From contig JBHICG010000036.1 of assembly GCA_046759445.1 (NCBI GenBank), forward strand, positions 1 through 33,573: 33,573 nucleotides of DNA, written 5' to 3'. The notes beneath the pieces are model-generated. The model did not search any database and had not been told where the DNA came from. It saw only the letters and a list, made by a program, of their open reading frames with translations. Source of the stretch: Candidatus Scalinduaceae bacterium (GTDB taxonomy: Bacteria; Planctomycetota; Brocadiia; Brocadiales; Scalinduaceae). The translations under genes were made by a program, and so were the position numbers. Each line of letters starts with the position of its first letter. The first letter of the stretch is position 1. Positions 2,689-26,338 of this stretch are shown in pieces.

Positions 2689-3654
2689 TTAAGGCCATTT
2701 ATGTCCGAAATAGCGATTCTCTGCGCCACCGATTTGTGCGATGATATCAAGATCATGCTGGTTGAGTCGCTTCTTCCACGAATCATCTTGTCTAATTTCA
2801 CTAGAGCGTCTGAGTCGCATACGATTACCTATAATATGGTGCGCAGTTTCATAAAAATTTTTTGGAACTGTGGCTCGTTCTAGTCCTACAAAATCTGAGA
2901 TACGGTCTATAGTGCCTTGAACATCGGCACACAATTCATCATATGTTAGCCGTAACCATCTGCTGGGAGATACATATTGTCTTGATCGTTCAGAGTTCAT
3001 ATTAGCTGTGTTCCAAATACGCGTGGCCCAAGCCACGTTATCGGTATTACTGGCTTTCATGATGCTAACTACTCCTCCCCTTACGTCACGCACCAGGTGA
3101 ATTACATACAGGTCTAAATTGTCACACTCTTTCAAGAATTTAATCCGAATAGAATCCTTTTGTGAGTCCACAAAAACTTGTTTACCGCTGATGGCTAAGG
3201 CAGCCCGCGCTAGGTGTGCGTTTCGCTGACCAATCAGGCCTATCAATTTCCGGTACCCTGGCCAAATAGGTACCAATGTATCTCTAATCCTCTCTAAAAA
3301 TACATTTCTAAGAGGTCGTACTAAGGGAATATTTAACCACCTGTAGTTGCTGATTTGAAACCTGGTCTGCCAATTTAACAGACTAAATGAGCTGCCCAGA
3401 GAGTTTATGTGTCGCTCGAGCTCCAAATAGAAAGGGCATTGTAATAGCAGAGTCCCACACGAACATTGATACTTCTTAATATTTACCTTAGGAATAGGCC
3501 CACCTACCTCGTGAATACTCATCATTTGCGGATGGGCATTCAAAAGGAAAGTAAGCAGGGTAGAACCGCTATGATTCGCACCGGTAATATACATGTATGG
3601 TACCTTTTTATTATTCATGACCTTGGACTCCTTCATTAATGTATTTACAAGCAT
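2689..3654 (-). CDS. Sulfotransferase family protein with CSCG motif
   Basis: YITGANHSGSTLL PAPS loop, CSCG..C, VDSQK, IHLVRDVRG, LTYDEL, HIIGNRMR; start uncertain, probably one of the internal Met codons near the 5' end. Confidence 0.8.
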   Translation of the reverse strand: MLVNTLMKESKVMNNKKVPYMYITGANHSGSTLLTFLLNAHPQMMSIHEVGGPIPKVNIKKYQCSCGTLLLQCPFYLELERHINSLGSSFSLLNWQTRFQISNYRWLNIPLVRPLRNVFLERIRDTLVPIWPGYRKLIGLIGQRNAHLARAALAISGKQVFVDSQKDSIRIKFLKECDNLDLYVIHLVRDVRGGVVSIMKASNTDNVAWATRIWNTANMNSERSRQYVSPSRWLRLTYDELCADVQGTIDRISDFVGLERATVPKNFYETAHHIIGNRMRLRRSSEIRQDDSWKKRLNQHDLDIIAQIGGAENRYFGHKWP

Positions 3655-8348: not shown

Positions 8349-9629
8349 TCAATTTAGAAGAAACATTTTTAGGATTTCAGAATATTTCTTGGTTATCGAG
8401 TTATAGGTATAATTCTCAATATTATCATTGCAATAATATTTTACTTCTCCGAACTGTATAAATTCCTGGTAATGTTCCAAAATAATATTTTCCAACATAT
8501 CAGAGTTTTCTGCAAACTTACCTGCATTGGTTTCTTCTAAAAAATCTTTTATGATACCTCCATACCCTCCAGTAGCAACTATTGGTCGTCTTGCACCAAA
8601 GTATTCAAATAGTTTGGCTGGGCAATCACCTTTTTCCTTTTCATTATTAAGGCGCAAAAGTAATAGTAATTGTGACTCTCTTTGTCTTTCTAATACCTTC
8701 TGTCTTGGTATAAGACCACAAAGATCAACGACTCCTTCCAAATTGTATTTGTTAATCTCCTCTAAAAGCCAGTCTTCTTTTTTCCCATAGAATTTAATTT
8801 CTATTAAATCTTTTTTAATTCTATTTTTTTTAATTAAATTCGTTACCACTCCAAATAATAATGAGGGGTCCCTTTCTCCCTTACAAAATTTTCCTGTATG
8901 CGTAATAGTAAATTTATCTGTCAATTTCAATGATTTTTCAGGGAAATCATCAGTATCATAACCATTTGTTATACAAAATACTTTCTTATCCTTAAAAAGA
9001 GCCTTAAGTACATCTGCTTGTGGTTTAGTAACTGTTACTAGAATATCAGCATCATTTAATGTTTTTGTTGCCAATCGCTTATCAAAATACTTAATTAAAC
9101 CAAGCTTATTATCTGCATACAACTGAGCCCAGGGATCCCGAAGATCAGCTAACCATGGAATTTTGTACTTTTTGCTCAATTTCCTGGCTATTAAATGGGT
9201 TGTTACGGGTGGAGATGTGCTAATAATTACATCTATCTTCTCTTTTAATAAGAACTTAGATGCGGATTTAAACGCAAACTTGTACCAGCCTATTTTACTA
9301 TCAGGAAAGGCTATAATTTCTTTTAACAACCTAATAATTTTACTTTTCCATGTCAAATCGTTATATTTTTTTGATATAGCAATATCCAATTGTTCATGCA
9401 AGACTTTTTGTGGTTTAAACCCAAATTTTGATTTAAAGGAACCCTTAACATCCTTATAATCAGTTTTAATTACTTTTATCCCTTCAGGTGATATCCCTGG
9501 ATGTTTAACTGTCAGGACTATGGGTTCCCATCCAAATTTTGGAAAATATTTGGCTAACCTGTAAGGTCTTTGAGAACCACTGACTTGAAGTGGTGGAAAA
9601 GCATAAGCTATAATTAAAGCTTTCTTCAT
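8349..9629 (-). CDS. Glycosyltransferase family 4
   Basis: IAYAFPP, STSPP, ADLRDPW, ITNGYD, PAKLFEY. Confidence 0.88.
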   Translation of the reverse strand: MKKALIIAYAFPPLQVSGSQRPYRLAKYFPKFGWEPIVLTVKHPGISPEGIKVIKTDYKDVKGSFKSKFGFKPQKVLHEQLDIAISKKYNDLTWKSKIIRLLKEIIAFPDSKIGWYKFAFKSASKFLLKEKIDVIISTSPPVTTHLIARKLSKKYKIPWLADLRDPWAQLYADNKLGLIKYFDKRLATKTLNDADILVTVTKPQADVLKALFKDKKVFCITNGYDTDDFPEKSLKLTDKFTITHTGKFCKGERDPSLLFGVVTNLIKKNRIKKDLIEIKFYGKKEDWLLEEINKYNLEGVVDLCGLIPRQKVLERQRESQLLLLLRLNNEKEKGDCPAKLFEYFGARRPIVATGGYGGIIKDFLEETNAGKFAENSDMLENIILEHYQEFIQFGEVKYYCNDNIENYTYNSITKKYSEILKMFLLN

Positions 9630-10547
9630 CTATTCTTCTAGTCCTTCCTTATTCAACTCATACTGATGGGCAAGCCATTTCGCCGTCTTCTCTATAACAT
9701 TTCTTTCAGCTTCTATAGACGCAAAGGTATGATTACCATCAGGTACTATGTGATACTCACAGTTGTGTCTTTTACCTTCAGATATTTCCTTGAATTTGAA
9801 CTCAAATTCCTCTTTCGGGACAATATTTCGTTCTCCATACACAAAGAGGGCTTTTCGTCTTGAGAAGAGAAAGGTCTCAAAAGCCTTAAAAAACTCTCTG
9901 TATCTTTTATCATCCTGTCCTCTTTTCTCTATCAACAATTTCCAAAGGACGCTCCTGATAATAAGGAAATTACTATTAGAGGAAAAACATCTTCTCCAGG
10001 CTTCAATACTAAATGATTTTTTCATCCATCCTTTTAAATATCGTTTTGCAGCAACTCCACTAATTGCTTCATTATTAGACAGCTTGGCTTCAGAAAACTT
10101 CTGTTTGTCAGTAATAATGGGAAGGGACCAAGAAATAATGCCATCTACCCGAATGTCCTTTGCAGCAGTCATCAAGGCATTCCTTGCACCAGCGCAAATT
10201 CCTAAAAGAACCACCTTTTCAACCTGAGCTTCCTGAGTGAAAAAATCTATGGCATTTAATGTATCCTCGGTATCAAAGAGATCAAAATGAATATCCCCAA
10301 TTGCTCCTTCACTGTCTCCTATTCCTGGGAAATCTAACCTCAAAGAAGAGAATCCCAACTGATTCAATCTTCTTGATGTTTTCACATAAATCCTGTGGGG
10401 ACCTACCCTGTAATGAAGGCCAGAGTTAACGAAAATAACACCAACCTTTCTGCTTTTGTTTTCAGTTTTGTGCAGGATTCCGAAGATATTATTCCCTCTA
10501 CTTTCAAAGCATACTGGTTTTTCAATGTTTGAAGATAATACCTTCAT
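9630..10547 (-). CDS. Alpha/beta hydrolase with Cys nucleophile elbow (similar to exosortase-A-system 'hydrolase 1')
   Basis: YRVGPHR, RLDFPGIGDSEG, LLGICAGA, GNHTF; start moved to the ATG at 10547, which overlaps the upstream TGA (ATGA). Confidence 0.75.
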   Translation of the reverse strand: MKVLSSNIEKPVCFESRGNNIFGILHKTENKSRKVGVIFVNSGLHYRVGPHRIYVKTSRRLNQLGFSSLRLDFPGIGDSEGAIGDIHFDLFDTEDTLNAIDFFTQEAQVEKVVLLGICAGARNALMTAAKDIRVDGIISWSLPIITDKQKFSEAKLSNNEAISGVAAKRYLKGWMKKSFSIEAWRRCFSSNSNFLIIRSVLWKLLIEKRGQDDKRYREFFKAFETFLFSRRKALFVYGERNIVPKEEFEFKFKEISEGKRHNCEYHIVPDGNHTFASIEAERNVIEKTAKWLAHQYELNKEGLEE

Positions 10548-11368
10548 TCCAAATCTCTTGTTATCCATTTTAGAGTTTCTTCGTATAAATTCGTAGGAAA
10601 ATACCACTCAAAAAATAATCCTGAATCCCAAAAAATCTTATCATCAGCAAACTTTAAATTACATAATGCCCCTCTCTTTTTGTAAACTTCTGAAAGGGTC
10701 TCAAATGATCTATTTAGTTTGGGCCGACCATTTATCGTGCAAAGGAGAACTGAACCCTTAAAATTTGACACATTAGTAGTTAGACAAATCCCCAAGAGTT
10801 GCTCATATACCTGACGTGTGAGGTAATGACCTTCTATATCGACTAAGCCTTTAGATTCAATTTCTTCAATGATCTGGCTCTTAGATGTGTTAGCCTTTTT
10901 GATGGTAAATTCCGAAAACAGCTTCTTTCCGAATAGTTCATTTAGATATACTTTACCACTGATGATGGGAGACCATAAAATAAGCTTCTCTATCCTGGTA
11001 TCCTGCTCAGCTACTAGAGCAGAAATAGTACCCCCCAATCTCAAGCCTAGCAGACCAATTTTTTCAATTTTTAGCTGTGACTTAAAAAAATCAATTGACT
11101 TTATTGTATCAGAAATCTGAGTTTCAATCGTGGCATCTTCGAAGTCTCCCTGGCTATCTCCATATCCAAAGCAGTCAAAGCGTAAGACGTAAAAACCTTT
11201 ATTACATAGTTCTCTGGCAAAATTAACTAATACCCTATAGCTTAACTGTTTCTCTTCACCATAAGGATGGCAGAAAATTATCCCTTTCCTCTCCTTGCTT
11301 TTGCTTGGACTGTGCAAAATAGCAAAGAGGCTCTTTTCTTCATTCTCAAAGTAGAATGCCTTTTCCAT
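10544..11368 (-). CDS. Alpha/beta hydrolase with Arg at the nucleophile position (similar to exosortase-A-system 'hydrolase 2')
   Basis: CHPYGEE, LRFDCFGYGDSQG, LLGLRLGGT, LILWSPI. Confidence 0.75.
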   Translation of the reverse strand: MEKAFYFENEEKSLFAILHSPSKSKERKGIIFCHPYGEEKQLSYRVLVNFARELCNKGFYVLRFDCFGYGDSQGDFEDATIETQISDTIKSIDFFKSQLKIEKIGLLGLRLGGTISALVAEQDTRIEKLILWSPIISGKVYLNELFGKKLFSEFTIKKANTSKSQIIEEIESKGLVDIEGHYLTRQVYEQLLGICLTTNVSNFKGSVLLCTINGRPKLNRSFETLSEVYKKRGALCNLKFADDKIFWDSGLFFEWYFPTNLYEETLKWITRDLE

Positions 11369-11460
11369 TTAATCCTATTTTTTTATCGTCACTTTTTATA
11401 AATATATATTTCTTCTTCTACATAAAGTATTAAAGAAAACGACGAACAACTTCGCATTAT

Positions 11461-12200
11461 TTAGCAAAGATATTTCTTCAAGACTTTACCCAAAGGACTC
11501 TTAGGAATCTCTTCCCGAAAATCAATAACCCTTGGTATCTTAAATTCAGCTATCTTCCCCTTACAAAATTCAACAAGCTCGTTTTCATCACACTGATAAT
11601 TAGGAACAACAACAGCCTTCATCACATCCTCACCATAATGGCTCTTCATTCCTGCCACAATAGCCTCTTTTACCTTCGGGTGCTTACACAGGAGCGCTTC
11701 AATCTCTGATGGGTCTACTTTATTACCGCCAGTGTTCAGGAAAAATGTCCTCCTACCTGTGATATATAGTCTTCCATTGTTATCCTTTTTCACTATATCT
11801 CCTGGGAAAAAATATCCCGAAAAGATTCCCTATTGAGGTTTCTCAATCCTGAATAACCCTTGGTCATAGCTGGACTCCTAATACCTATATTACCCGTTTC
11901 ATTAGATCTTAAGATATCACCCCTCTCACAAAAAATCTCTATCTCCACATTCTTTATTGGTAAACCAACAGATTCCACTATCTTTGAGATGTTCTCATCA
12001 AGATTTATGGATACAGAACCAGTCTCAGTTGAACCACATAGCTGCCTAACAAATATTCCGTATTTATCATAGAATTTCTGAAACGTCCTATGCGGTAAAG
12101 GTTCGCCGGCTGAAAAACAGGGTCTTAAGGAAGAGCAAACTATCTCTTCTCTTAAGGGTGTATCCGCTAAAGTTAATTCACCATAAATACGAAGAATCAC
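11461..12200 (-). pseudogene. Acyl-AMP/CoA ligase (ANL superfamily), 5'-truncated and frameshifted
   Basis: FSAGEPL and CGSTE (Y>C in the YGxTE motif) in one frame; GYFFPGDIVKKD..LYITGR, GGNKV, PKSPLGKVLK in another. Shift near 11816-11819 (CGG GA TAT). No P-loop (TSGTTG) half is present. Confidence 0.85.
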
Positions 12201-12212
12201 GCTATATAATTA

Positions 12213-12470
12213 GTTTCTGTTGCTGAAACACTATATTGTCACCCTGCCCCCATTCCTAGCTTACGCAAGGAAGCTATGGGGTCAGGGTCTCTGATCCTGA
12301 ACTTGATTCAGGATTGAGATATAATAGATTCTGAAATCGGAGATCCTGAATTTAATTCAGGACCTGGTTCAGGTGTGATTCTACTCAACGAGTAGAATCA
12401 CTTAAGCAATTCTGCTGTTGCGGAATTGCCAATGACATTTTTGGGTATTTAAGCTTTCCGCAACAGAAAC
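12213..12470. mobile_element. MITE-like non-autonomous element (258 bp)
   Basis: 16-bp TIRs GTTTCTGTTGCTGAAA / TTTCCGCAACAGAAAC (15/16 match), TAATTA on both sides (12207-12212, 12471-12476), internal TCCTGAA..TTCAGGA palindromes at 12295-12313 and 12344-12362. Confidence 0.75.
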
Positions 12471-12519
12471 TAATTAGTAATTCCCTTAAGGAAAGTTTTT
12501 CGACTCATATTTCTAAAGT

Positions 12520-12795
12520 CTATTCACTATTTAATTCCTTACTAATATACTTAGCCAAGCTTCCTATATTCTCGAAAACCTCAATACGCATTTCAGATTC
12601 GTCAATAAAGATGTTAAATTCTTTTTCCAATCCAACCACCAACTCTTGAAGAGTAATTGAATCCAGCCCAAGCCCTTTCCCAATGAGAGGAGTATCTCGT
12701 GATATTTGTCGAGCATCAATGTGAACGATTAATCTTTTTTCAATAACTTTCTTTATTCTATCTTCAATATTGGATGTAACTTCATTCATAATCAT
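12520..12795 (-). CDS. Acyl carrier protein
   Basis: GLGLDSI phosphopantetheinylation motif, LEKEFNIFI, FENIGSL; GAGG spacing favours a start at 12789. Confidence 0.88.
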   Translation of the reverse strand: MIMNEVTSNIEDRIKKVIEKRLIVHIDARQISRDTPLIGKGLGLDSITLQELVVGLEKEFNIFIDESEMRIEVFENIGSLAKYISKELNSE

Positions 12796-12877
12796 ACCTC
12801 TTTTATCTGCATTTTTTTAATACTAAATCCTCTTCGTAGCTATTCTGATCCAGCCAGCTTGTAGAAATCTAAAAGCT

Positions 12878-14371
12878 CTACTCTACCTCTGATCGCACCA
12901 ACGTAGGACGATCTATGCCTCCCAAAATGCCTGCCTTCAATAAACCATACTTTTTGTATTTTCGTGCCCTTATCAATGTCTTCTCTTCAGAGCGCTTATC
13001 GACATTTTCCTGGGCTCGCTTCCAGGTCTCATATACTCGAAAGATGTCTCCACGTTCATAGTCTTCTCTTGGTACCACGCCTAGAGGATGAAACACTCCA
13101 TCTCCATAAGATTCAGGTTGATAACAGTTGACATTGTTTTCAAAATTGCGTTGCGTATATTGCATGAAATCCCTAAAATTCCTCCTAAATAAAACCATTT
13201 TATAACGTTTAGGGTTACGCATCAACAATGATCCCGGTTCCAAGTTCATAGGGGAGACATAAGGATAACGTACATTTCTGAACTTATCATAAAAATAATC
13301 CGAAAATGTTTTAATTGCCTTTATGTCTTCATCCTCCTCAAATGGCAATCCCATAAGGGTGCTCATGTCAATCATAAAGTTATCGTACCTTTGGCAGTGG
13401 TTAAGCACATCTTCCAGCGCTTCATCTGAGAAATATGCCTTCAAAAATCGGCGATGACCAAGTAGCTTACGCAAGCGATCCGAAGGCGTCTGTACGTCGA
13501 TGCAAAGCTCAATGAAGTTAAAGGTTTCTGCCAATGAATCAATAAGTTTTTTATTAGGCAGAGACCAGCTATAGAAATAGCAATTGTATTTCTTTTTTTC
13601 CAAAGCAGAAAAAATATCAAGATAGTAGTTTTCCTGTACATTTTCCCGTAATGGATCAAAATCAAAGGTTAATCGAGATGATCTTGGATATTTCGAAAGA
13701 ATCTCTATTTCACGGAGGATTAATTCTATTGGTCGGTAGATAAATTTTTTGCGTCCAAAACCTTGCTTGTTGTTCCATGAATTACCTGCACAATAAACAC
13801 ATGTTTCAATGCAACCCTTCCCAGTCCAAATGTAGCTGTTTAGGACGTTTATATCAGAAACAATATCTTCCAAATTCTCTATAAGGAATACGTCTTTCAG
13901 ACTGTTTTCGGATTGAACATATCGTTTACGAACAGATATTAGCTTACGGTCATTTCTAAAAACACAGTTTAAGGGCTTTTGTCCCGTGACAAGCCTATAA
14001 AGCGGTTCTTCACCATCACCTCTGATAACTACATCGAAATTGGTATTTTCTACCAGTTCTCTTGCAAAAAATGTGGCAGTTTGCCCACCAGCTATTGTTA
14101 CAATTCCGGGATCACACCTCTTAATCATCGAAGCTATATATGAAGAGGAATAAAGAGTTTCCCACCACTTGCAGGAGACGGCGGCAAACTTCGGCCTATA
14201 TTTCGCAATCTCCCTCTGAACCGTTTCTTCGAACATTTCGTTATTGAGCGGAACTATCCTCACCTCCACATTCCGCTGATACAAGTACGACGCTATCCAC
14301 AGTAATGCATTATTAAACTTGTGATAATCTCCTCTGCGATAACGTGGTGGATTGAAAATAATTAGTTCCAT
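12878..14371 (-). CDS. Cobalamin-binding-domain radical SAM protein (class B-like)
   Basis: N-terminal B12-binding-type features (LLWIASYL, IAGGQTAT, DVVIRGDGE), GCIETCVYC = CxxxCxxC, MGLPFE; start placed at the ATG following GGGAG. Confidence 0.82.
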   Translation of the reverse strand: MELIIFNPPRYRRGDYHKFNNALLWIASYLYQRNVEVRIVPLNNEMFEETVQREIAKYRPKFAAVSCKWWETLYSSSYIASMIKRCDPGIVTIAGGQTATFFARELVENTNFDVVIRGDGEEPLYRLVTGQKPLNCVFRNDRKLISVRKRYVQSENSLKDVFLIENLEDIVSDINVLNSYIWTGKGCIETCVYCAGNSWNNKQGFGRKKFIYRPIELILREIEILSKYPRSSRLTFDFDPLRENVQENYYLDIFSALEKKKYNCYFYSWSLPNKKLIDSLAETFNFIELCIDVQTPSDRLRKLLGHRRFLKAYFSDEALEDVLNHCQRYDNFMIDMSTLMGLPFEEDEDIKAIKTFSDYFYDKFRNVRYPYVSPMNLEPGSLLMRNPKRYKMVLFRRNFRDFMQYTQRNFENNVNCYQPESYGDGVFHPLGVVPREDYERGDIFRVYETWKRAQENVDKRSEEKTLIRARKYKKYGLLKAGILGGIDRPTLVRSEVE

Positions 14372-14387
14372 ATTACTCCCTACTGCA

Positions 14388-14632
14388 TTACTGGTCGCCA
14401 CATAAATTTCCTATATTCTCGAAATATTCAATACACAGTTTAGATTCTTCAATAAAGATGTTAAATTCCTCTTCTAACCCATCACCAATTCCCGAAGAGC
14501 AATTGAATCCAGCCCAAAACCCTTCCCTATAAGTGGTGTACTTCTTGATACTTTTTTAGCATCTACACATAGTTCCATTTTGTCAGTAATCACTCTCTTT
14601 ATCCTATCTTCGATATTGGTTGATGTCTTCAT
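14388..14632 (-). pseudogene. Second acyl carrier protein, frameshifted by a 1-nt deletion
   Basis: MKTSTNIEDRIK...GFGLDSIALRELVMG* continues in another frame as LEEEFNIFIEESKLCIEYFENIGNLCGDQ*, colinear with the ACP at 12520-12795; GAGG RBS upstream. Confidence 0.85.
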
Positions 14633-14663
14633 GGAAATACCTCTCTTATCCTGATTTCTACAA

Positions 14664-15272
14664 TTAGATCTCCATACCATTTTCTGGAAACTTTTCAGTG
14701 ATTAACATAATAGGCAGGTGATTTGCGATTACTCTATACGTCCTGAAGATTAGAAAATCATCTTTTTCTATATTGAAATAATCAGCAAGATCATGGGCTC
14801 TTTCTTTGCCACAATCCAAGATCTCACGGAAAGTTTCTAAACGATTCTCAAAAATTAATAGACCAATAGGTTTGTTACTATTTAACAAACCATCTCTTAT
14901 TTTTTCATCCAGTCTGTCAGGAACAATTATTGAATCACCATAGAGATGGTTTTTTTGACTTAATCTTCCACGCAAGAATATTTTTCTCTGCATAACACTA
15001 CACTCTTTTTTTATCTCTAAAGAAGGAATGCCATGATCTAAGATAAAATGATCCTGGAATAATTTTATTACCTTCATTCTTTCCCAAAAACAAGCTTCCA
15101 GAATCTCGGTCACCATGCCGTCAGTGGTTAGAAGAATACGCTGAAAAGAAGTGAGATCCTTTGGATTGATGGGAGTACGTTTTAAGGTTTGCTGAAGATC
15201 AAGCCGTAGAAGATTGCCGTTTGAAGAATCAAGATGTAGAAGATCAACGTTTGAAGAACTATTATAATCCAT
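14664..15272 (-). CDS. Chorismate pyruvate-lyase family protein (DUF98/Rv2949c-like, probable 4-hydroxybenzoate synthase)
   Basis: QRILLTTDGMVTEILE, KPIGLL..RLETFREI, RTYRV, PIMLITEKFP. Confidence 0.75.
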   Translation of the reverse strand: MDYNSSSNVDLLHLDSSNGNLLRLDLQQTLKRTPINPKDLTSFQRILLTTDGMVTEILEACFWERMKVIKLFQDHFILDHGIPSLEIKKECSVMQRKIFLRGRLSQKNHLYGDSIIVPDRLDEKIRDGLLNSNKPIGLLIFENRLETFREILDCGKERAHDLADYFNIEKDDFLIFRTYRVIANHLPIMLITEKFPENGMEI

Positions 15273-16792: not shown

Positions 16793-18103
16793 CTAGGTTA
16801 ATACTCCGTTGACTAAGCGATGGTCTGTAATACGTCTTGCCTTAAGGTCGAAGCAAGGCAATGTTCCATATGGTACAGTTTTGACGTTCACGCGAAGTCC
16901 CAACCCGTTGCGAATTTCTTTAGCAACTGCATTAGCGATTGTATCGGGGGTAGCCCCATTGACTTCAAGCCTAATCTCCATTTCATCCAACTCATGTCGA
17001 CGATACACGTCTACTGCAAATTCACCGATCTGGGAGAAGCGGCGCACAATATTCTCTATGGCGCTGGGAAAGACGTTTACACCACGTATTACGAGCGCAT
17101 CGTCTATCCGTCCAATGACGCCACCCTCCAGGTGAGAATAGTTTCTCCCGCATTCGCAAGGAATATTTCGAAGTCTCACTTTGTCTCCTGTACGGTAACG
17201 GACTAAGGGCATCCCAACCCGTCCCAGGTTGGTGATGACCAGTTCTCCTTCTTCAACTGACTGATCGGTTGCAGGATCTATTACCTCGAATATGAACTCA
17301 CCTTCGTTCAAACAAACACCGTATTGAGGTTGGCACTCAAAACCCCAGGCACCAACTTCAGTAGCGCCAGCATGATCATAGCACAAGGAACCCCAGACCG
17401 TTTCGATTCGGAATTTGGTTGACGGCAAACTTGCACCAGGTTCACCAGCATGGATTGTGAGGCGGACCTTTGATTTGGTTATGTCAATATCCTCCTGCCC
17501 AGCAACCTCTGCCAAATGTAATGCATATGTTGGGGTGCAGACTAAAACCGTGACGTCATGAGCAAGGATAGCATTTAAACGTTGTAGAGAGGACATTCCA
17601 CCCCCTGGAATGGATAATGCGCCAATTAACCTGGCCCCTTCGTATGCACTCCAAAAACCAATGAAGGGGCCAAAGGAAAAGGCAAAGAAGATACGGTCTG
17701 TTGAATTCACCCCGATCGCCTTATATACCGTAGCCCAACAACGGGCCCACCACTTCCAACTTTCCTCCGTGTCTAACCAGCGTAATGGCTCGCCCTTTGT
17801 GCCTGAAGTTTGATGGATACGGGTGTATGTCTCTCGCTGAAAAGTTAGATTGCTACCGTAAGGAGGATAAACTTTTTGGTCAGATGAGAGTTCATCCTTG
17901 GTGGTAAATGGCAACTGCCGATAATCCTCAAATGTTTGCACATCTAAAGGGTGTCTCACACCCACACTTTTCAGCTTCTGACGGTAGAAAACGTTGGATT
18001 TTAAAACCTGATCTAACATCATTTGAAACTTCTTCAATTGAATCTGTTCAAGTGCTTCTCGACCAAGTGTTTCAATGAAAGTGTCTAGGTAACTTGTTTC
18101 CAT
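16793..18103 (-). CDS. Phenylacetate-CoA ligase (PaaK) family aryl-CoA ligase
   Basis: LPFTTK, HQTSGTKG, CTPTYALHL, AGEPG, DHAGATE, RYRTGD, GRIDD..IRGVNVFPSAIE. Confidence 0.85.
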   Translation of the reverse strand: METSYLDTFIETLGREALEQIQLKKFQMMLDQVLKSNVFYRQKLKSVGVRHPLDVQTFEDYRQLPFTTKDELSSDQKVYPPYGSNLTFQRETYTRIHQTSGTKGEPLRWLDTEESWKWWARCWATVYKAIGVNSTDRIFFAFSFGPFIGFWSAYEGARLIGALSIPGGGMSSLQRLNAILAHDVTVLVCTPTYALHLAEVAGQEDIDITKSKVRLTIHAGEPGASLPSTKFRIETVWGSLCYDHAGATEVGAWGFECQPQYGVCLNEGEFIFEVIDPATDQSVEEGELVITNLGRVGMPLVRYRTGDKVRLRNIPCECGRNYSHLEGGVIGRIDDALVIRGVNVFPSAIENIVRRFSQIGEFAVDVYRRHELDEMEIRLEVNGATPDTIANAVAKEIRNGLGLRVNVKTVPYGTLPCFDLKARRITDHRLVNGVLT

Positions 18104-18313
18104 GGTATATCTCCTTTTTTTTCATTGCCTTCATCTAATGCAATAAGCTATTGCTTCGGAAATTAAACAACATAGTTTATTAATAATCGAAAGGTGCTAG
18201 CTGGTCAGTTTTCACAGGGAATTTCCATAGATAAGCATAATCGCTTTACAATAGAAATTATGCAATAAGTGCGACCGAAAAGAGTTAAACTTTTTATTGA
18301 GATTATCCTCTTC

Positions 18314-19255
18314 CTACTTATTATAATAAGTGTTGGTGTCAATCAGTTCCAAACTTCTTTGCAAAAATTGACGCACAGGAGTTACACTGAACTTCAATCC
18401 TTTTATTTTATAATAGCGTAATATACCTTCACTTTGAAGGATTCGATCTGCAAGATCATAACTGCGCACACAGTCAGGTCTCAGCGGGATTACCTGATAA
18501 GGAATTTTTTTTGCACCATGGATAATGGTCATCTCGAAAGTATCCGTGCTGTATTGCAAAGCACGTGTAGTAGGATGGAGTTCCTCGGCAACATGATACA
18601 ATGTAAAACAATCCTTAGGAATCACACCGATGCCCGCCACCAGTCCATTATGTTGCTGCATCTTACAAATAGGTGATTTCTCTCCAAAGGCCGTACCCAG
18701 ATGATGCTCCGATACAAGTTCCTTGCTGTACTTACCCCATGCAGCGATCGAATGCGTTGGATGAAGACTGCGTGTCACACCTTCGGTTCGCCTGAACAAC
18801 TCTGTTAATAGACCGACTTGTGAGGGTGCACGTTTGACATTAAAAATCTTCTGCCTTTGAACATAATAGTATTGCAATACTGTAAGAGGAAAAGTCGGCA
18901 TCAGAAGAGTCCCTTCTTCTCCTATCATCGCCTTCAACAAATTGATTAACTGGAGAGGATTTTGGCATGGCACACGGCGGCTTAATGCATCCATGGAGCT
19001 GTGTAAATAGATTGTAGCTCCGTGCGTAAATCCTAATTCCTTGAGCTGACTAATAAATTCTTCTCGTGACAAGGTACGGCGATCCAGGCGTCTCATTAAA
19101 GTACGCCTTTTTCGCCAAGCTGTTCGACAATAAGGGAGCAATGAAGCCGGAAGAATATGCTGTACAATTGCCTTCATCTTTTTATCTTTTAGATTTAACA
19201 CTCTTCGTGTCGGGTGCATTTCCTCACATATACTGTCTTCAAAATAATTCACCAT
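18314..19255 (-). CDS. AAC(3)/YokD-family N-acyltransferase
   Basis: YLHSSM, GTLLMPTF, GLLTELFRR, RSLHPTHSIAAWG, TLYHVAE; true start probably 19219 or 19174. Confidence 0.82.
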   Translation of the reverse strand: MVNYFEDSICEEMHPTRRVLNLKDKKMKAIVQHILPASLLPYCRTAWRKRRTLMRRLDRRTLSREEFISQLKELGFTHGATIYLHSSMDALSRRVPCQNPLQLINLLKAMIGEEGTLLMPTFPLTVLQYYYVQRQKIFNVKRAPSQVGLLTELFRRTEGVTRSLHPTHSIAAWGKYSKELVSEHHLGTAFGEKSPICKMQQHNGLVAGIGVIPKDCFTLYHVAEELHPTTRALQYSTDTFEMTIIHGAKKIPYQVIPLRPDCVRSYDLADRILQSEGILRYYKIKGLKFSVTPVRQFLQRSLELIDTNTYYNK

Positions 19256-19280
19256 TGTAAAATGTGCTGTCTAAATTGAC

Positions 19281-19525
19281 ATAAGTACCTGTACAAAATT
19301 AATCAGGTATTATTTTTTAGAGTTTATCGAGTCCTACAATGATCTTAGTACTCAACGTTACCATAAACCGTGCCTTTTTCTTGTCATCTCTGAAAGCGAA
19401 GAATCTTTCGCTAAACGTTAAAGATTCTTCACTCCGCTTCGCTTCGTTCAGAATGACAGCGATAAAGAAGATCAAATTATGACTTTCCCCAGTATATACC
19501 GAAAAATATATGGTCAGGTACTTAT
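19281..19525. mobile_element. Possible MITE containing a REP-like palindrome
   Basis: 11-bp terminal inverted repeat ATAAGTACCTG/CAGGTACTTAT; inner hairpin TGTCAT..GAAGAATCTTT..AAAGATTCTTC..ATGACA (19382-19458). Confidence 0.45.
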
Positions 19526-19574
19526 ATTGCACGAGGACATAAATGAAACTTTTTCATATGTCAGGTCTAGTAGT

Positions 19575-19622
19575 AAATCCACCCCTTCCCCTCTTTACTA
19601 AGGGGGGGATAAAGGGGGATTT
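19575..19622. repeat. C-run/G-run palindromic intergenic repeat
   Basis: AAATCCACCCCTTCCCCTCTTTACTAAGGGGGGGATAAAGGGGGATTT forms an imperfect GC-rich hairpin. Confidence 0.55.
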
Positions 19623-19700
19623 TGTTTTCATTTGTGACCCCTTGCAGTATATATTTACCCAGGCAAGTCATGAGTTGCCCAAACGAATCCAGAATTATTG

Positions 19701-19952
19701 TTATTGACTCCCCAGCTTATGTTTAATATAGTCAGTCAGACGCCTTATCGAACCAATGTTATCAACAACAACTTCACCTGCTTCCACCTCGATTTGATAT
19801 ATTTCTTCCAGATGTGTTATGAGATGCACTATGGCAAGGGAGTCAAGAATGCCTTCCTCGATCAAATCATCGTCAATATTGAACTTTTTAGGATTCTCTC
19901 TTGGAATAAATTGATTGAAAATATAATTCTGTAACTCTTTCTCAATGTGCAC
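19701..19952 (-). CDS. Acyl carrier protein (DltC-like type)
   Basis: LIEEGILDSLAIVHL motif, acidic 83 aa, GGAGG RBS, GTG start overlapping the ligase 3' end. Confidence 0.88.
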   Translation of the reverse strand: MHIEKELQNYIFNQFIPRENPKKFNIDDDLIEEGILDSLAIVHLITHLEEIYQIEVEAGEVVVDNIGSIRRLTDYIKHKLGSQ

Positions 19953-21420
19953 AGGCCACCTCCTTTCTTGTGTTTATCGTTGATTCACGGCGTATTGGTT
20001 TTCCGCTAGCGGTTCTAATAAGTGTGTTGACAAACTGGATATTTTCTGGGATCTTATAGCCAGTCAAGTGTTGTCTACAATAATCCTTCAACTCAATTAC
20101 AGTAGGTGGATTCTTAACGGTTTGCACCAATACCACCCGGGAGTGCGGGATCTCTCCCAATCGTTTATGATGATGTGGAAAGACACAAGCTTCTTTAACG
20201 GCTGGGTGAGACTCCAGCACCACCTCAACTTCTTGCGGAAAGAATTTCATCCCACCGACATTAATTACGTCTTTCGAACGCCCTAAAATATAAAGATATC
20301 CCCTTTCATCCAACCTACCCAGATCACCTGTTGCAAACCATCCGTCCGGCATGATCTCCTCGCGTTTCTGCCATGGATCATAGTAAGCATCGATGAAACC
20401 TTTCCCTCGCAATTTGATCGCCTTTAAGTCATTTCCTAGTCCTACGTCCTCCATACGAATTTCGTAAGCCGGAAGAACTCGTCCAACTGAACTGCGTTTA
20501 CCCTTAGGATTGTCCAGAGAAATGCAGGGCAACCCGACTTCAATGATTCCATAGGCCTCAGTCAAAGGCATTTTAAAGCGGTTATAAAATGTCTCGGCAA
20601 CTTCGGTCCGTAAAGATACCGCCGTCGAAATCGCCAATCGTAGACTAGGCATCATCAGTGAACTGCGATCTTGTGCCATAAATTCATAATGCACCGGCGA
20701 GCCATAAATTATAGTTCCCTCGCTATCAACCGTCGTTTGGATAATAGTAGCGCCAAGATGGTTTTTACACAAAACGATTGTTGCGCCAAAACTGAGATAG
20801 GAAACAATGGACACAGTAAAATGATAGGCCATGGACAAAAGCCAGATGATTCTATCCTTTGGACCTATACATAAACCGTCGTTGGCTGCATGAATTCGGT
20901 CATAAACGGTTTCATGCGAGAGAACTATGCCTTTGGATGTACCCGTAGTACCAGATGTAAAGCGCAAAAAAGCGGGGTTGATGCTAAAAAACTTTGAAGG
21001 ATGTTCCCGAAAACTCTTGACACTAACAACAACGGCATCTTCGAAGATAGGTGTGAGTTTCCCATTTTGAAACGGTTCTATGGCGCTAACAGTTTCCGTT
21101 TTTGAAACAACTGTATTCAAACAAATTTCACGACAGATTCTATGCTTCTCTTCAGGAACCAATTCAACTGGAATCGGTACAACACAGGCGCCACAACGCC
21201 AGATCGCGTAAGTCAAAATTATGTATTCAAGACCACTCGGGAAGTGTAACCCGACACAACTGCCAGGCCCAATCCCTTCGATTTTGAGTCGGTCAGCAAC
21301 GTATTCGATTTTTTCGCGAAGCTGGTAATAGGACTTAAAGTCATCTTTGCCCGGTCCGACAATAGCCAGGTGATTGGGCTGCTTTTCAACCGTTTTACAA
21401 AATGTGTCCATTAAATTCAT
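19942..21420 (-). CDS. Class I adenylate-forming enzyme (acyl-CoA/acyl-ACP ligase)
   Basis: FTSGTTGTSKG, AYGIIE, FATGDLG, GRSKDVINVGG, RTASGK; GGAGG RBS. Confidence 0.9.
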   Translation of the reverse strand: MNLMDTFCKTVEKQPNHLAIVGPGKDDFKSYYQLREKIEYVADRLKIEGIGPGSCVGLHFPSGLEYIILTYAIWRCGACVVPIPVELVPEEKHRICREICLNTVVSKTETVSAIEPFQNGKLTPIFEDAVVVSVKSFREHPSKFFSINPAFLRFTSGTTGTSKGIVLSHETVYDRIHAANDGLCIGPKDRIIWLLSMAYHFTVSIVSYLSFGATIVLCKNHLGATIIQTTVDSEGTIIYGSPVHYEFMAQDRSSLMMPSLRLAISTAVSLRTEVAETFYNRFKMPLTEAYGIIEVGLPCISLDNPKGKRSSVGRVLPAYEIRMEDVGLGNDLKAIKLRGKGFIDAYYDPWQKREEIMPDGWFATGDLGRLDERGYLYILGRSKDVINVGGMKFFPQEVEVVLESHPAVKEACVFPHHHKRLGEIPHSRVVLVQTVKNPPTVIELKDYCRQHLTGYKIPENIQFVNTLIRTASGKPIRRESTINTRKEVACAH

Positions 21421-21436
21421 TTCAATCCTCCTTTCA

Positions 21437-22612
21437 TCAATATTCTACTGCGGCCTCTCCGACAGCTTCGCCCATAGCCAAGCAACAACCTGCTATTCGA
21501 GCCGAGGCCTGCGCCCGGGGTTCTGCTGAAAGGCATTTTCCTGCTGTCCATAAATTTTCCATGTCTCGAACCTTCAAGGCCCTCAACGGGATTTCATAGT
21601 AGTCACCACCAGGTAGATACTCTAATGTCACACCCTTTTTCTGATCCCAATATTCGATTGGCCAACAACAACGACAAGCAGCATCGGGAAATTTTTGTCC
21701 ACATTTAACGTCAACTTCCGTCAAACAATACTCTCCCTTAATCTGGCCACCATCTCTAGACCCCAGTTTACCTGTACGGGATACCTTTGATTTTGAAAAA
21801 CCGGGAAGGCTTACCAAGAATGCTACTAATTCATTCATCGTTCCCTCCACATTTCGGGTAATTTCCGCTAACACTTCCGGCTTACTCCAGTTGACTCTCA
21901 AAGGCACAAAGAGTTTCCCATATACTTCATCATCGTACACACCCATATCAATCCAGGCCATAGCGCATTCACGCGGCAGCATTCCATTCTGAGTCGCTCG
22001 CCGGATATTGCGCAATAACTCGATACTATATGGGAATTTCATCGTGCCAGGTTCCACACCTCTCATTTGAAAGATAAAACCTCCCGCTGCGCGACGATGA
22101 TTGTCAATAACCAACCCAGGATCAATCATACGGACGATTTCTGCGCTTCCGGTGGTATCAATTAACACTTTCGGTTGAAGAGTAATAGTTCTGTGAGGTG
22201 TGGCTACCTTGATCCGACGTACCAAACCATTCTCCACCTCAACACAGGTAATTTTGCTTTTAAAAAAAACCTTGATTTTTGATTCTTCACAAATCCACGC
22301 TTCAATAACCCTTTGATAAACATCAGGGGAAACGCTCAGGACTTGCGTTCTACCGATTTTTCGCATGTGTGAGTGCGGACTTGCATCTAAAAGTCTATTT
22401 GCCAATTCAACAGGAAGGCCTTCATTGATAAATTCTCCAGAAGAATCGTAAAGTCCCCCAAGAGTATGAATCAAACAATGAACTACTGTACCACCCAAGT
22501 GGGCGGTTTTCTCAAATAGAAAAACATCCGCCCCACGGCGAGCTGTAGAAATAGCGGTCGCTATACCGGCTGTGCCAGCACCTATAACAACGACTGCCTT
22601 ACCGTAATCTAT
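21437..22612 (-). CDS. FAD-dependent oxidoreductase (FAD_oxidored-like) with an ATA start or a mutated start codon
   Basis: The frame stays open 38 codons upstream of the listed ORF: IDYGKAVVVIGAGTAGIATAISTARRGADVFLFEKTAHLGG (GxGxxG). Also IDTTG, YEIPLRAL, AGKCLSA, MGEAVG. AAGGAG lies 8 nt before the ATA at 22612. Confidence 0.8.
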   Translation of the reverse strand: MDYGKAVVVIGAGTAGIATAISTARRGADVFLFEKTAHLGGTVVHCLIHTLGGLYDSSGEFINEGLPVELANRLLDASPHSHMRKIGRTQVLSVSPDVYQRVIEAWICEESKIKVFFKSKITCVEVENGLVRRIKVATPHRTITLQPKVLIDTTGSAEIVRMIDPGLVIDNHRRAAGGFIFQMRGVEPGTMKFPYSIELLRNIRRATQNGMLPRECAMAWIDMGVYDDEVYGKLFVPLRVNWSKPEVLAEITRNVEGTMNELVAFLVSLPGFSKSKVSRTGKLGSRDGGQIKGEYCLTEVDVKCGQKFPDAACRCCWPIEYWDQKKGVTLEYLPGGDYYEIPLRALKVRDMENLWTAGKCLSAEPRAQASARIAGCCLAMGEAVGEAAVEY

Positions 22613-23051
22613 TTTTTCTTCTCCTTTCAGTAGCCAATCCTTATTTTCGTGTATATCTATGGATCTTCTATTCCCCTACTACTTGAAGTTTTCTTAATCA
22701 ATTACTAAAGCTATCAAAATAATAATTGATTTATTTCTAATTTTAAAACGTCACTCCCTCCCGAAGTGCAATGATTCTCCTCTTATACAGGTCGAAACTC
22801 TCCCGACTAGTAATTACCATATCGTACAAGAATAACAAAAACATAACTTCAGCTTTCTTCTCAAAGCTAGCACGGTAAACGCCACAATAACTCTTCCATA
22901 CCTGTAATGCAAAAAAACTGATTGAGAAAGTCAGAGTGTGAGGTAAGAGAAAGTATTCTTTCTTCGTTGTGTTCCCCACACTTTGGCGCACTACGATTGG
23001 TTCACATGTTAGTTGCCTCTTCCTTGACTTATCCAGCAACCTTTTTACTTA

Positions 23052-24071
23052 TCAGGAATATGGTAAACAGAGTGCTTTGATCCTTTCTGAGTTGTAGAAA
23101 TTGCGAAAACGCTCGATCAGTTCCAGAAGCTCCGGCTCGATCCGTGCAAGAAACCTTTTCACATGAAGGAGACCGATTTCTCCCTTGCCGACTCGAGTGC
23201 TCCGCAAGATTCCTGCATGCTCTAACTCGGCCCTTCTTCGATAGAGTCTCTGATACCCATCAAATCGATATCCAAGGCGCCTGACTACACGCTCTCGCCT
23301 TCGTGGAAACATAAGGGCATAGTCGTGAAGGAGGGCCCAGTCAGGCTTTGTACTTGATACAGATGGGATGGCTATAAAGTACGGCACCCTGGGTCGCATC
23401 ACCTTGGTTCGCATCGTCCTCCTCCTTCCCATCATATCAATAAAGGAAGCTTCTTTCTCTTCGGGAAGGAAGAGATTCGGAAAATGAACCCTCTCCTGGA
23501 GGTGGTGGAGTAAGCTGTGCACATGGGTCTCAAGCATAATGATAAAACTGTCCTCCCTCTCGGCAAGCTTCCCATAAGGCGTGTTAGACCCGTATGGGGT
23601 GGGTGATTTTTCATGATCTCTGACAAGTTCCTCAGCGTTCCTGCCCCACACCGACACAGGATTTGTGGGGTGAAGACTGCGTAACACTCCAGGCCGCCCT
23701 CGGAACACTTCGCTGACGATGCCACTTCGAGATGGAGAACTTCGGACATCGAAGGGTATCTGCCGGTTGAGATGTTGAGCCATTGATCGAGTCATGGGAA
23801 ACGAAGGCATCATGATACATCCTTCGGTGCCAACGGTTTCAATTAGAGCATCAATCACCGCCTCAGCTCCACCCTCAACATAGCCAAGACGGCTAAGTGA
23901 AGAGTGGACGCAAACGATTGCTCCCCTTTCTAGCCCTATGCTTCTGAAGGAATCGACAAGCATTTCTCGATTCACACGGCAGGACACTTTGTTAAAGTGC
24001 CACAATGTTTTCCGATTAAGATAGCCAACGATACGATGCATTTTTAGGCTGTTAGCAAGCTTTCTAACCAT
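23052..24071 (-). CDS. AAC(3)/YokD-family N-acyltransferase (second, divergent)
   Basis: VHSSLSRLGYVEGGA, GCIMMPSF, GIVSEVFR, RSLHPTNP, LLHHLQE. Confidence 0.8.
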   Translation of the reverse strand: MVRKLANSLKMHRIVGYLNRKTLWHFNKVSCRVNREMLVDSFRSIGLERGAIVCVHSSLSRLGYVEGGAEAVIDALIETVGTEGCIMMPSFPMTRSMAQHLNRQIPFDVRSSPSRSGIVSEVFRGRPGVLRSLHPTNPVSVWGRNAEELVRDHEKSPTPYGSNTPYGKLAEREDSFIIMLETHVHSLLHHLQERVHFPNLFLPEEKEASFIDMMGRRRTMRTKVMRPRVPYFIAIPSVSSTKPDWALLHDYALMFPRRRERVVRRLGYRFDGYQRLYRRRAELEHAGILRSTRVGKGEIGLLHVKRFLARIEPELLELIERFRNFYNSERIKALCLPYS

Positions 24072-25906: not shown

Positions 25907-26338
25907 TCACCCATCCATCCCCACCATGTGCTTGGCAATAAATATCACCATCTCTAGCGACTGCTCGTAATTGAGCCTTGGATCGCACAGTGTCTTGTAA
26001 GCTCTTGTGAGGTCTGCTTCGCTCATGCTGCGGGCACCGCCAACGCACTCGGTTACGTTGTCACAGGTCAATTCAAAGTGCACACCGCCGAGATAGGACC
26101 CTGCCAACTGATGGATCTTAAATGCCTGTTCGAGCTCGGAGAGAATATGATTAAAGTTTCGTGTCTTGATGCTGTTCAGTGTCTTTTGGTTGTTGCCATG
26201 CATTGGGCCACAAATCCACAAGACTACTTTGCCGGCCTGTTGAACCGCCTCAATCAAGGGTGACAAGCACTTCTCTATCTGATGGCCACCGAACCTGTAA
26301 ATCAACGTTACATTACCAGGTTCATTATACTGAAACAC
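25907..26338 (-). pseudogene. C-terminal fragment of a class II DAHP synthase
   Basis: EPGNVTLIYRFG, WICGPMHGN (canonical CDPMHGN), KTR.F, GGVHFELT..NVTEC.GG, CDPRLNYEQSLE; the N-terminal majority of the enzyme is absent. Confidence 0.88.

Follow-up and report, generated by a model that had tools for sequence, protein, structure and literature searches.

A probable mosaic, partly decayed paralogue of a carrier-protein cassette, with a putative benzoate-type payload, in an anammox polysaccharide locus

Why would a polysaccharide locus of an anammox bacterium carry a chorismate-lyase-family gene next to carrier proteins, a radical SAM (S-adenosylmethionine) enzyme, an adenylating ligase and a pair of hydrolase-like proteins? 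We addressed this question for positions 9630-15272 of contig JBHICG010000036.1 (assembly GCA_046759445.1, Candidatus Scalinduaceae bacterium), which belongs to an anammox metagenome-assembled genome (MAG) that is 97% complete; the whole stretch of DNA analysed, 33,573 nucleotides, is called the window. A sequence-only reading had proposed a candidate aryl-decoration system for a surface glycan, in which 4-hydroxybenzoate or a derivative is adenylated, loaded on acyl carrier protein (ACP), modified by the radical SAM enzyme and transferred to the glycan by the hydrolase pair. With moderate confidence, we read 9630-15272 as a paralogous copy, mosaic and partly decayed, of a conserved carrier-protein cassette, which would deliver a benzoate-type payload to a glycan.

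The proposed gene order was reproduced. The cassette genes are all on the minus strand and encode, in the direction of transcription, the lyase-family protein, ACP1, a cobalamin-type radical SAM enzyme (rSAM497), ACP2, an acyl-AMP (ANL) ligase, an Arg-type alpha/beta-fold protein (hydrolase 2) and a Cys-type one (hydrolase 1), directly abutting a glycosyltransferase family 4 (GT4) gene (Table 1). The two hydrolase types that had been read are borne out by the motifs GLRLG and GICAG, and the start codon of hydrolase 1 (ATG 10547) overlaps the upstream TGA as ATGA. The cassette lies inside a long same-strand polysaccharide locus with glycosyltransferases, a Wzy-like gene, AsnB, a deacetylase, WecB and two sulfotransferases.

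The same set recurs elsewhere, so that its assembly in the window is beyond chance. An intact paralogue was detected on contig C10 of the same genome, with all genes on one strand: class II 3-deoxy-D-arabino-heptulosonate 7-phosphate (DAHP) synthase, hydrolase 2, hydrolase 1, lyase, ACP and a 510-residue ligase, followed by methyltransferase, Wzy-like, transglutaminase-like and AsnB genes. The C10 and window proteins share 71.5% identity for hydrolase 2, 63.5% for hydrolase 1 and 90% for the lyase (C10:8197-8757), and the C10 ACP is 73.6% identical to ACP2. Gene-neighbourhood comparison, which had been suggested as a check, also recovered the set in genome G060 (lyase, ACP, DUF362-like protein, ligase, hydrolase 2, hydrolase 1, COMT-type O-methyltransferase and two B12 radical SAM genes) and, minus the hydrolases and with added transposase fragments, in genome G027; the evidence suggests that both are Brocadia genomes. 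The core set comprises the PF01947 protein, an ACP, an ANL ligase of about 500 residues and the translationally coupled Arg/Cys pair, whose genes are adjacent in C10 and G060 as well; the Arg protein has no catalytic triad, and the Cys protein has a Cys-His-Asp set. The window, C10 and G060 copies are all situated amid glycosyltransferase, Wzy-like, AsnB, deacetylase or sugar-nucleotide genes. For further work, the C10 copy is the one of choice.

The lyase subfamily was found in 3 of the 92 genomes of the order and in 2 of 401 genomes sampled from the phylum (both counts include this genome), and 652 lyase homologues were detected beyond the order. One of them, P0176, is a lyase with an ACP-like tail fused to it; its source calls it chorismate-pyruvate lyase/acyl carrier protein, and Pfam called only the lyase domain. 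Four lyase/hydrolase-2 protein pairs match in source and contig size (23157, 35982, 29004 and 10250), as do one rSAM497/hydrolase-2 pair (16015) and one lyase/rSAM497 pair (73610), which we infer to reflect co-occurrence on the same contig.

The window copy departs from this conserved set by decay. The acyl-AMP ligase of the proposed scheme proved to be a C-terminal half, covering profile positions ~276-531 of 531 and split between two frames (Pfam AMP-binding positions 284-383 of 384, plus AMP-binding_C). It corresponds to residues 273-510 of the intact 510-residue C10 ligase, with 72-77% identity in this alignment and 74-79% in the comparison of the contigs. The N-terminal adenylation half is absent, leaving the protein short of a full-length ANL architecture, and this half was not found in a search across the other contigs of the genome. 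The remnant has its 5' edge where a 270-bp element (12207-12476) has its terminal inverted repeat; the 22-nt arms of this element are 95% complementary, and it contains internal palindromes. Since this element has 57 matches across the contigs of the genome, many of them partial, together with terminal inverted repeats, we identify it as a miniature inverted-repeat transposable element (MITE); the depth of Logan contigs increases ~25-fold at this element.

Of the two carrier proteins that had been read, ACP2 stands, with an open frame, a PP-binding domain and the attachment Ser, and ACP1 is a frameshifted pseudogene. ACP1 is paralogous to ACP2 (mean column identity 77%) and has a 1-base deletion at ~14480, evident from the alignment with the C10 ACP and ACP2; the frame is broken after the DS motif, a stop follows '...ELVMG', and the 3' end has been replaced at the start of the radical SAM gene. 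In the window Cys protein, the presumed triad Asp position is occupied by Asn243 (9825-9827). Judged by sequence, the window ligase and ACP1 appear dead. With the N-terminal half of its ligase lost at the MITE and a frameshift in the remainder, the window copy cannot charge its own carrier; the most it could do is use the C10 ligase in trans. The copy thus does not function as had been drawn.

The broken genes could be assembly artefacts of the MAG, for instance if two MITE copies had been collapsed, and the locus would then be intact in reality. The 57 genome matches of the MITE would allow this, and no contig uniquely spans the MITE interior. Against this explanation, Logan contigs from two runs cover, with 0 differences, the ligase remnant into the MITE (11391-12260), the MITE through ACP2 to the radical SAM gene (12450-14432) and ACP1 in the same frameshifted form (14405-14695); both runs perhaps represent the source sample and do not count as independent support. 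Runs X3-X5, holding a small share of the stretch or none of it, were excluded from the results. The missing ligase half occurs nowhere else in the 97%-complete genome, and the artefact explanation is very improbable in our estimate. A Logan variant with an extra base at 14480 was considered as an intact ACP1 allele and rejected, since it matches the C10 paralogue, with a summed depth greater than that of the flanks.

The radical SAM gene of the window copy is intact. The assignment of a cobalamin radical SAM enzyme held: rSAM497 matches PF02310 (B12-binding, 53.4 bits) and PF04055 (Radical_SAM, 35.0 bits), it has the CX3CX2C motif, and C187, C191 and C194 are invariant in 32 sequences. Its structure model (predicted local distance difference test score, pLDDT, 90.1; predicted template modelling score 0.90) is nearest to TsrM (E-value 1e-15), MgmA, CysS, TokK and OxsB, with template modelling scores (TM) of 0.5-0.6. 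Domains and predicted fold point to a class B cobalamin-dependent radical SAM enzyme, for which methyl transfer is predicted. The best NCBIfam match, TIGR04190, gave 106.9 bits against a cut-off of 500, so that rSAM497 is outside the named NCBIfam equivalogs, and a PDB sequence search with the rSAM497 profile returned weak RimO/TM_1862 matches only.

The place of this enzyme in the proposed scheme, as a part of the cassette, was not supported. About 60 orthologue clusters of rSAM497 were detected (53-79% identity, nearly all 495-507 residues), while no orthologue was found among 40 relatives, the best match having 27% identity. Since none of 29 loci around rSAM497 relatives carries a lyase or hydrolase homologue (tblastn, E-value 1e-5), rSAM497 is not a regular member of the lyase cassette. 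Pfam annotation covered 15 of these 29 loci, four further scanned loci contain distant paralogues, and L023 was left out of the scan, having the same open reading frame (ORF) layout as L016. Type A loci (L009, L012-L015, L019, L020 and probably L011) have the order optional pyridoxal phosphate (PLP) decarboxylase, ACP, COMT-type O-methyltransferase, ligase of ~590 residues resembling fatty acyl-AMP ligases (FAAL), 458-residue B12 radical SAM enzyme and rSAM497, with polysaccharide export and deacetylase genes nearby. Type B loci (L016, L017, L018 and L034) encode a DltB-like MBOAT, an ACP, a DltD-like protein, rSAM497 and a FAAL-like ligase; in Type C loci (L022 and L024) a HemN-like radical SAM gene lies upstream. 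Types A and B share the adenylating ligase, and the ACP is present in five of those loci.

These neighbourhoods suggest that rSAM497 is an import from a different cassette family, which has a FAAL-type ligase and, in several loci, an ACP. ACP1 and the lyase gene are ~90% identical in DNA to C10, and ACP2 with its downstream spacer matches the C10 ACP-ligase junction; as both flanks match C10 ACP regions, recombination appears to have inserted rSAM497 between two ACP copies. The Type A 458-residue radical SAM enzyme and O-methyltransferase have their orthologues in the Brocadia lyase cassettes (51-52% and 35-40% identity, respectively), suggesting that the lyase and FAAL cassette families exchange parts. 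In G027 and G060, the cassette comes with B12 radical SAM enzymes from other subfamilies. The second of these proteins in G060 (locus L040, 18471-19883) scores 410.5 against a cut-off of 360 for TIGR04072, 'lipid biosynthesis B12-binding/radical SAM protein', and its context is non-lipid.

An alternative is that the window copy remains active. ACP2 would then be charged in trans by the C10 ligase, rSAM497 would modify the carrier-bound acid, and the window Arg/Cys pair would transfer it, giving the polymer of this locus a second decoration with different tailoring. Full length and family invariants are preserved in the lyase, rSAM497, ACP2 and hydrolase 2, the C10 ligase is 72-77% identical to the remnant and the C10 ACP is similarly close to ACP2, radical SAM enzymes of other subfamilies stand beside the cassette in both Brocadia genomes, and a PaaK-like adenylating enzyme is encoded two genes upstream (PaaK/F390-synthetase-like, 16793-18103). 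These points are countered by several independent lesions, namely the ACP1 frameshift, the ligase deletion and frameshift, the Asp to Asn change in the Cys protein and a DAHP synthase remnant, and by the absence of the PaaK-like gene from the other three cassettes. We consider continued use rather unlikely and favour a partly decayed copy.

For the payload, the lyase-family protein is the main clue. The predicted chorismate-lyase-family gene was verified by a match to PF01947, 'Rv2949c-like chorismate pyruvate-lyase' (55.4 bits, gathering score 22, profile positions 1-142 of 149). The structure model (pLDDT 80.9) matches the DUF98 structure 2nwi with an E-value of 3.6e-12 and TM 0.86-0.89, and E. 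coli UbiC (1fw9/1g1b) with E-values of ~1e-4 and TM 0.59-0.64; UTRA effector domains were matched too. According to the model, the protein has the chorismate lyase, or DUF98/UbiC/UTRA, fold. In the alignment of 28 lyase-family members, R96 and E193 are among the invariant residues, and they may correspond to the product-binding Arg and Glu of UbiC. A PDB sequence search with the lyase profile gave 2nwi as the sole match, and the UbiA profile had no match above its cut-off. By family and fold, this protein would convert chorismate to 4-hydroxybenzoate.

The class II DAHP synthase provides a second clue. The C10 gene scores 641.3 bits, above the cut-off of 614.7. The window contains a remnant that is 64% identical to the intact C10 gene, with 185 bits to Pfam DAHP_synth_2 (positions 308-438) and a sub-cut-off 174 bits to TIGR01358; it is the C-terminal third, stranded between a glycosyltransferase family 2 (GT2) gene and an alpha-toroid protein gene. 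Apart from the C10 gene and the window remnant, no class II DAHP synthase was found in this genome, and a type I-beta DAHP synthase scores above its cut-off on another contig, and for this reason the class II enzyme looks cassette-linked and not housekeeping. This supports a tie between the gene set and chorismate supply in this genome.

Alternatively, the payload is not derived from chorismate. The PF01947 protein would then have another role, for example binding a ligand or acting on a carrier-bound substrate, and an amino acid or fatty acid would be loaded in an exosortase-A-like manner. This would agree with the score of the lyase against NF037993, the cyanobacterial chorismate-lyase equivalog (26.3 bits, cut-off 175), with 2nwi, the closest solved relative, which has no assigned function, and with a fold shared with non-catalytic UTRA domains. 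The best NCBIfam matches of the ligase are fatty-acid-CoA ligase subfamilies, and rSAM497 orthologues accompany FAAL-type ligases. On the other side stand the cassette linkage of class II DAHP synthase despite a housekeeping enzyme elsewhere, the COMT-type O-methyltransferases of the variants, the matches of the ligase to o-succinylbenzoate, DHB-AMP and benzoate ligases as well, and the aryl-ester hydrolases that are nearest to both hydrolases. On this evidence a payload of other origin is improbable, and we continue with a benzoate-type payload.

The Arg-type and Cys-type proteins are probably the part of the cassette responsible for transfer. Arg occupies the nucleophile position in 120 of 120 type-2 homologues (31-100% identity), which have no conserved His, and Cys occupies it in all 106 stand-alone type-1 representatives. 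An alignment of 101 type-1 sequences has Cys in all 101, His in 98 and Asp in 89; at the Asp position the window has Asn, and C10 and G060 have Asp. Among 150 type-1 representatives, 44 are at least 450 residues long, and 40 of the 44 have a GxRxG domain at the N terminus and a GxCxG domain at the C terminus; of the other four, two have Lys or His for Arg and two are without the first domain. Fused Arg-domain/Cys-domain chains were observed among proteins P0331-P0461, and one protein of 1184 residues has the pair twice. Among solved structures, both profiles come closest to one group of aryl-ester hydrolases (MHETase-like, feruloyl, cinnamoyl and chlorogenate esterases), and the Cys-protein family has 3,122 representatives at E-value <=1e-10.

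A two-part Cys acyltransferase is suggested by the invariance of Arg and of Cys and by the large number of Arg/Cys fusions. From these conservation patterns, we infer that the pair is one functional unit, in which the acyl group would be bound as a thioester to the Cys protein, with the Arg protein as non-catalytic partner. More tentatively, and with low confidence, the pair can be proposed as an undescribed two-part acyl-ACP-dependent acyltransferase, distributed over many phyla and serving swappable payloads, which in the lyase variant of this genome and of Brocadia would be a hydroxybenzoate, converted by O-methylation and CysS-like B12 radical SAM methylation to a methylated or alkoxy-benzoate and placed on anammox matrix polymers.

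Comparison with known systems places the cassette near the exosortase A (XrtA/PEP-CTERM) set, a likeness that the sequence-only reading had pointed out. Both have an ACP, an ANL ligase and an adjacent hydrolase-1/-2-like pair in a polysaccharide locus; within NCBIfam, the two hydrolases match TIGR03100 and TIGR03101 best and the ligase matches TIGR03098, and the Arg/Cys features hold in homologues that the Joint Genome Institute (JGI) names exosortase A-associated hydrolase 2. The likeness stops at the curated cut-offs. Hydrolase 2 scores 112.3 (window), 126.5 (C10) and 132.7 (G060) against 202.75 for TIGR03101, hydrolase 1 scores 106.9, 116.8 and 97.2, respectively, against 168.45 for TIGR03100, and the intact C10 ligase scores 238.2 against 592.35 for TIGR03098. 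No PLP decarboxylase (TIGR03099) was detected among the scanned ORFs of the window and C10, and there were 0 matches to the exosortase XrtA/EpsH (TIGR03109 and TIGR02602) in the 97%-complete genome. Unlike the exosortase-A set, this cassette has the chorismate-lyase-family gene and, in C10, the DAHP synthase. By sequence comparison, the cassette appears related to the exosortase-A set and likely works like it, yet it is a non-member by curated tests.

The p-hydroxybenzoate arm of mycobacteria resembles the first steps. Rv2949c, after which PF01947 is named, makes p-hydroxybenzoate from chorismate, and FadD22 has its own carrier domain. In both systems the acid is adenylated, or would be, and then loaded on a carrier; the loading of p-hydroxybenzoate by FadD22 is described in PMC10949201. 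In mycobacteria a polyketide synthase (PKS) extends the acid into a lipid, while the cassette has a free-standing ACP, no PKS, the Arg/Cys pair and a polysaccharide locus as its surroundings.

This precedent bears on a further alternative, that an aryl-ACP is made and the acyl group goes to a lipid or protein, or into a small molecule that is released, instead of a polysaccharide. Lyase and aryl loading by Rv2949c and FadD22 do feed a lipid, and in G027 the genes for lyase, ACP, ligase and tailoring occur with no hydrolases and, over the 20 kb examined, no sugar genes. Since the window, C10 and G060 copies are all among polysaccharide-type genes, we regard such an end point as unlikely and favour delivery to a glycan.

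For the tailoring genes, CysF/CysS of cystobactamid biosynthesis, an O-methyltransferase and a cobalamin radical SAM methylase, offer an analogy. PMC12846815 describes tailoring of a pantetheinyl-bound aminobenzoate by CysF/CysS, the CysS substrate being a thioester-bound, chorismate-derived aryl acid. The rSAM497 model matches CysS (9n1b/c/d) with an E-value of 5e-12 and TM ~0.6, a fold match that is general to class B enzymes, and a pair of O-methyltransferase and B12 radical SAM genes was detected in G027, G060 and the Type A loci. CysF/CysS are a direct precedent for the tailoring of a carrier-bound, chorismate-derived aryl acid by such a pair. The differences are a sequence identity of 14%, the lack of an O-methyltransferase gene in the window cassette and the fate of the CysS product, which enters a non-ribosomal peptide.

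The Dlt system (DltA, DltC, the MBOAT DltB and DltD) is similar to the surroundings of some rSAM497 orthologues, which sit in sets of MBOAT, ACP, DltD-like protein and FAAL ligase (L016, L018 and L034), suggesting that the rSAM497 family belongs to carrier-dependent surface-polymer acylation. The DltB-like match (175 bits) is below the cut-off of 375. Unlike Dlt, the window has no MBOAT or DltD, and transfer would use the Arg/Cys pair. The orthologues inside the Dlt-like sets were observed at L016 7392-13841, L018 1030-4034 and L034 729-2763; the addition of a radical SAM gene to a D-alanylation-type system is undescribed.

Taken over the cassette variants, the chemistry may run as follows. 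The class II DAHP synthase linked to the C10 cassette would boost chorismate supply, and the lyase would convert chorismate to 4-hydroxybenzoate, which the ligase would adenylate and load onto the ACP. In some variants, the O-methyltransferase and B12 radical SAM methylases would tailor the carrier-bound acid in a manner like CysF/CysS. The acyl group would then move onto the Cys protein as a thioester, with the Arg protein as non-catalytic partner, and would finally be handed to a sugar acceptor of the polysaccharide made by the surrounding locus.

Several points weigh against this interpretation, in addition to the score of the lyase against its equivalog and the nature of 2nwi and its fold given above. 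The evidence for the cassette chemistry is gene content and conservation, and the evidence for glycan attachment is location. The DAHP synthase linkage was observed in this genome alone, and in G027 the lyase, ACP and ligase occur without the hydrolase pair. Since the lyase subfamily is rare, the comparative base consists of few genomes and of coincidences in contig size. For the decay part, the MITE interior is resolved by no Logan contig, the contigs cannot link both flanks to a single copy, and the intact radical SAM, ACP2, lyase and hydrolase 2 genes fit residual function. The proposed aryl decoration keeps its support from the conserved cassette, the P0176 fusion, the DAHP synthase link and the CysF/CysS precedent; it failed for this copy as drawn, and the formation of 4-hydroxybenzoate and its transfer to a glycan are predictions from sequence.

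The sequence-only reading had known of no described system of this architecture, in agreement with our full-text literature search, in which no paper was found describing a cassette of lyase, ACP, ligase and hydrolase pair, and no function was found for the exosortase-A hydrolases. TIGR03100 was found once, as an annotation label, in PMC3584217. Exosortase-type sets of ACP, ligase and two hydrolases are widespread and have been catalogued for years, with no chemistry assigned in the papers found. The lyase variant gives an unusually readable payload, having a chorismate-lyase-family gene and, in one copy, a DAHP synthase. If the proposal is true, aryl esters or amides join the known decorations of bacterial surface polymers, and an aromatic, hydrophobic decoration would matter for the chemistry of the anammox granule matrix. 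The window copy would represent a cassette caught decaying and acquiring a foreign radical SAM gene.

Table 1. Positions in the window of the cassette genes and associated features
Feature	Position	Strand	Remarks
PF01947 chorismate-lyase-family protein	14664-15272	-	202 aa, intact; Pfam 55.4 bits
ACP1 pseudogene, frameshifted, 3'-truncated	14402-14680 (open frame 14474-14680)	-	Likely start 14632; 1-base deletion ~14480
Cobalamin-type radical SAM enzyme (rSAM497), intact	12878-14401	-	Likely start ATG 14362; B12-binding + Radical_SAM
ACP2, intact carrier protein, 91 aa	12520-12795	-	PP-binding 33.1 bits; DS motif
MITE, 270 bp	12207-12476		22-nt terminal inverted repeats; at ligase truncation point
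ANL ligase remnant, C-terminal ~47%	11461-12209 (frames 11793-12209, 11461-11829)	-	AMP-binding + AMP-binding_C
Arg-type alpha/beta-fold protein (hydrolase-2-like), 274 aa	10544-11368	-	GLRLG; Arg110 at ~11039-11041; best NCBIfam TIGR03101
Cys-type alpha/beta-fold protein (hydrolase-1-like)	9630-10547 (open frame 9630-10607)	-	GICAG, His275; likely start ATG 10547; best NCBIfam TIGR03100
GT4 glycosyltransferase directly abutting cassette	8349-9629	-	Glyco_transf_4 43.5 bits
Class II DAHP synthase remnant	25907-26338	-	Profile positions 306-438 of 443

A second carrier-protein module was observed upstream of the cassette, at 16793-24071. It includes the PaaK/F390-synthetase-like gene already mentioned, AAC(3)-like N-acyltransferases (18314-19255 and 23052-24071), an ACP (19701-19952), a full AMP-ligase of 492 residues (19942-21420) and an FAD oxidoreductase (21437-22498), and it may provide an N-acylation route for an amino sugar. 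The two sulfotransferase genes of the locus, at 88-1020 and 2689-3654, suggest a sulfated polymer. At 30282-31529 a likely sugar C-methyltransferase of 415 residues is encoded, in which Methyltransf_23 is combined with a C-methyltransferase C-terminal domain. The G+C content over 1-kb windows ranges from 0.29 to 0.50 (for instance 0.48 at 17001-18000 and 0.50 at 23001-24000), and these swings fit a mosaic locus built from several sources.

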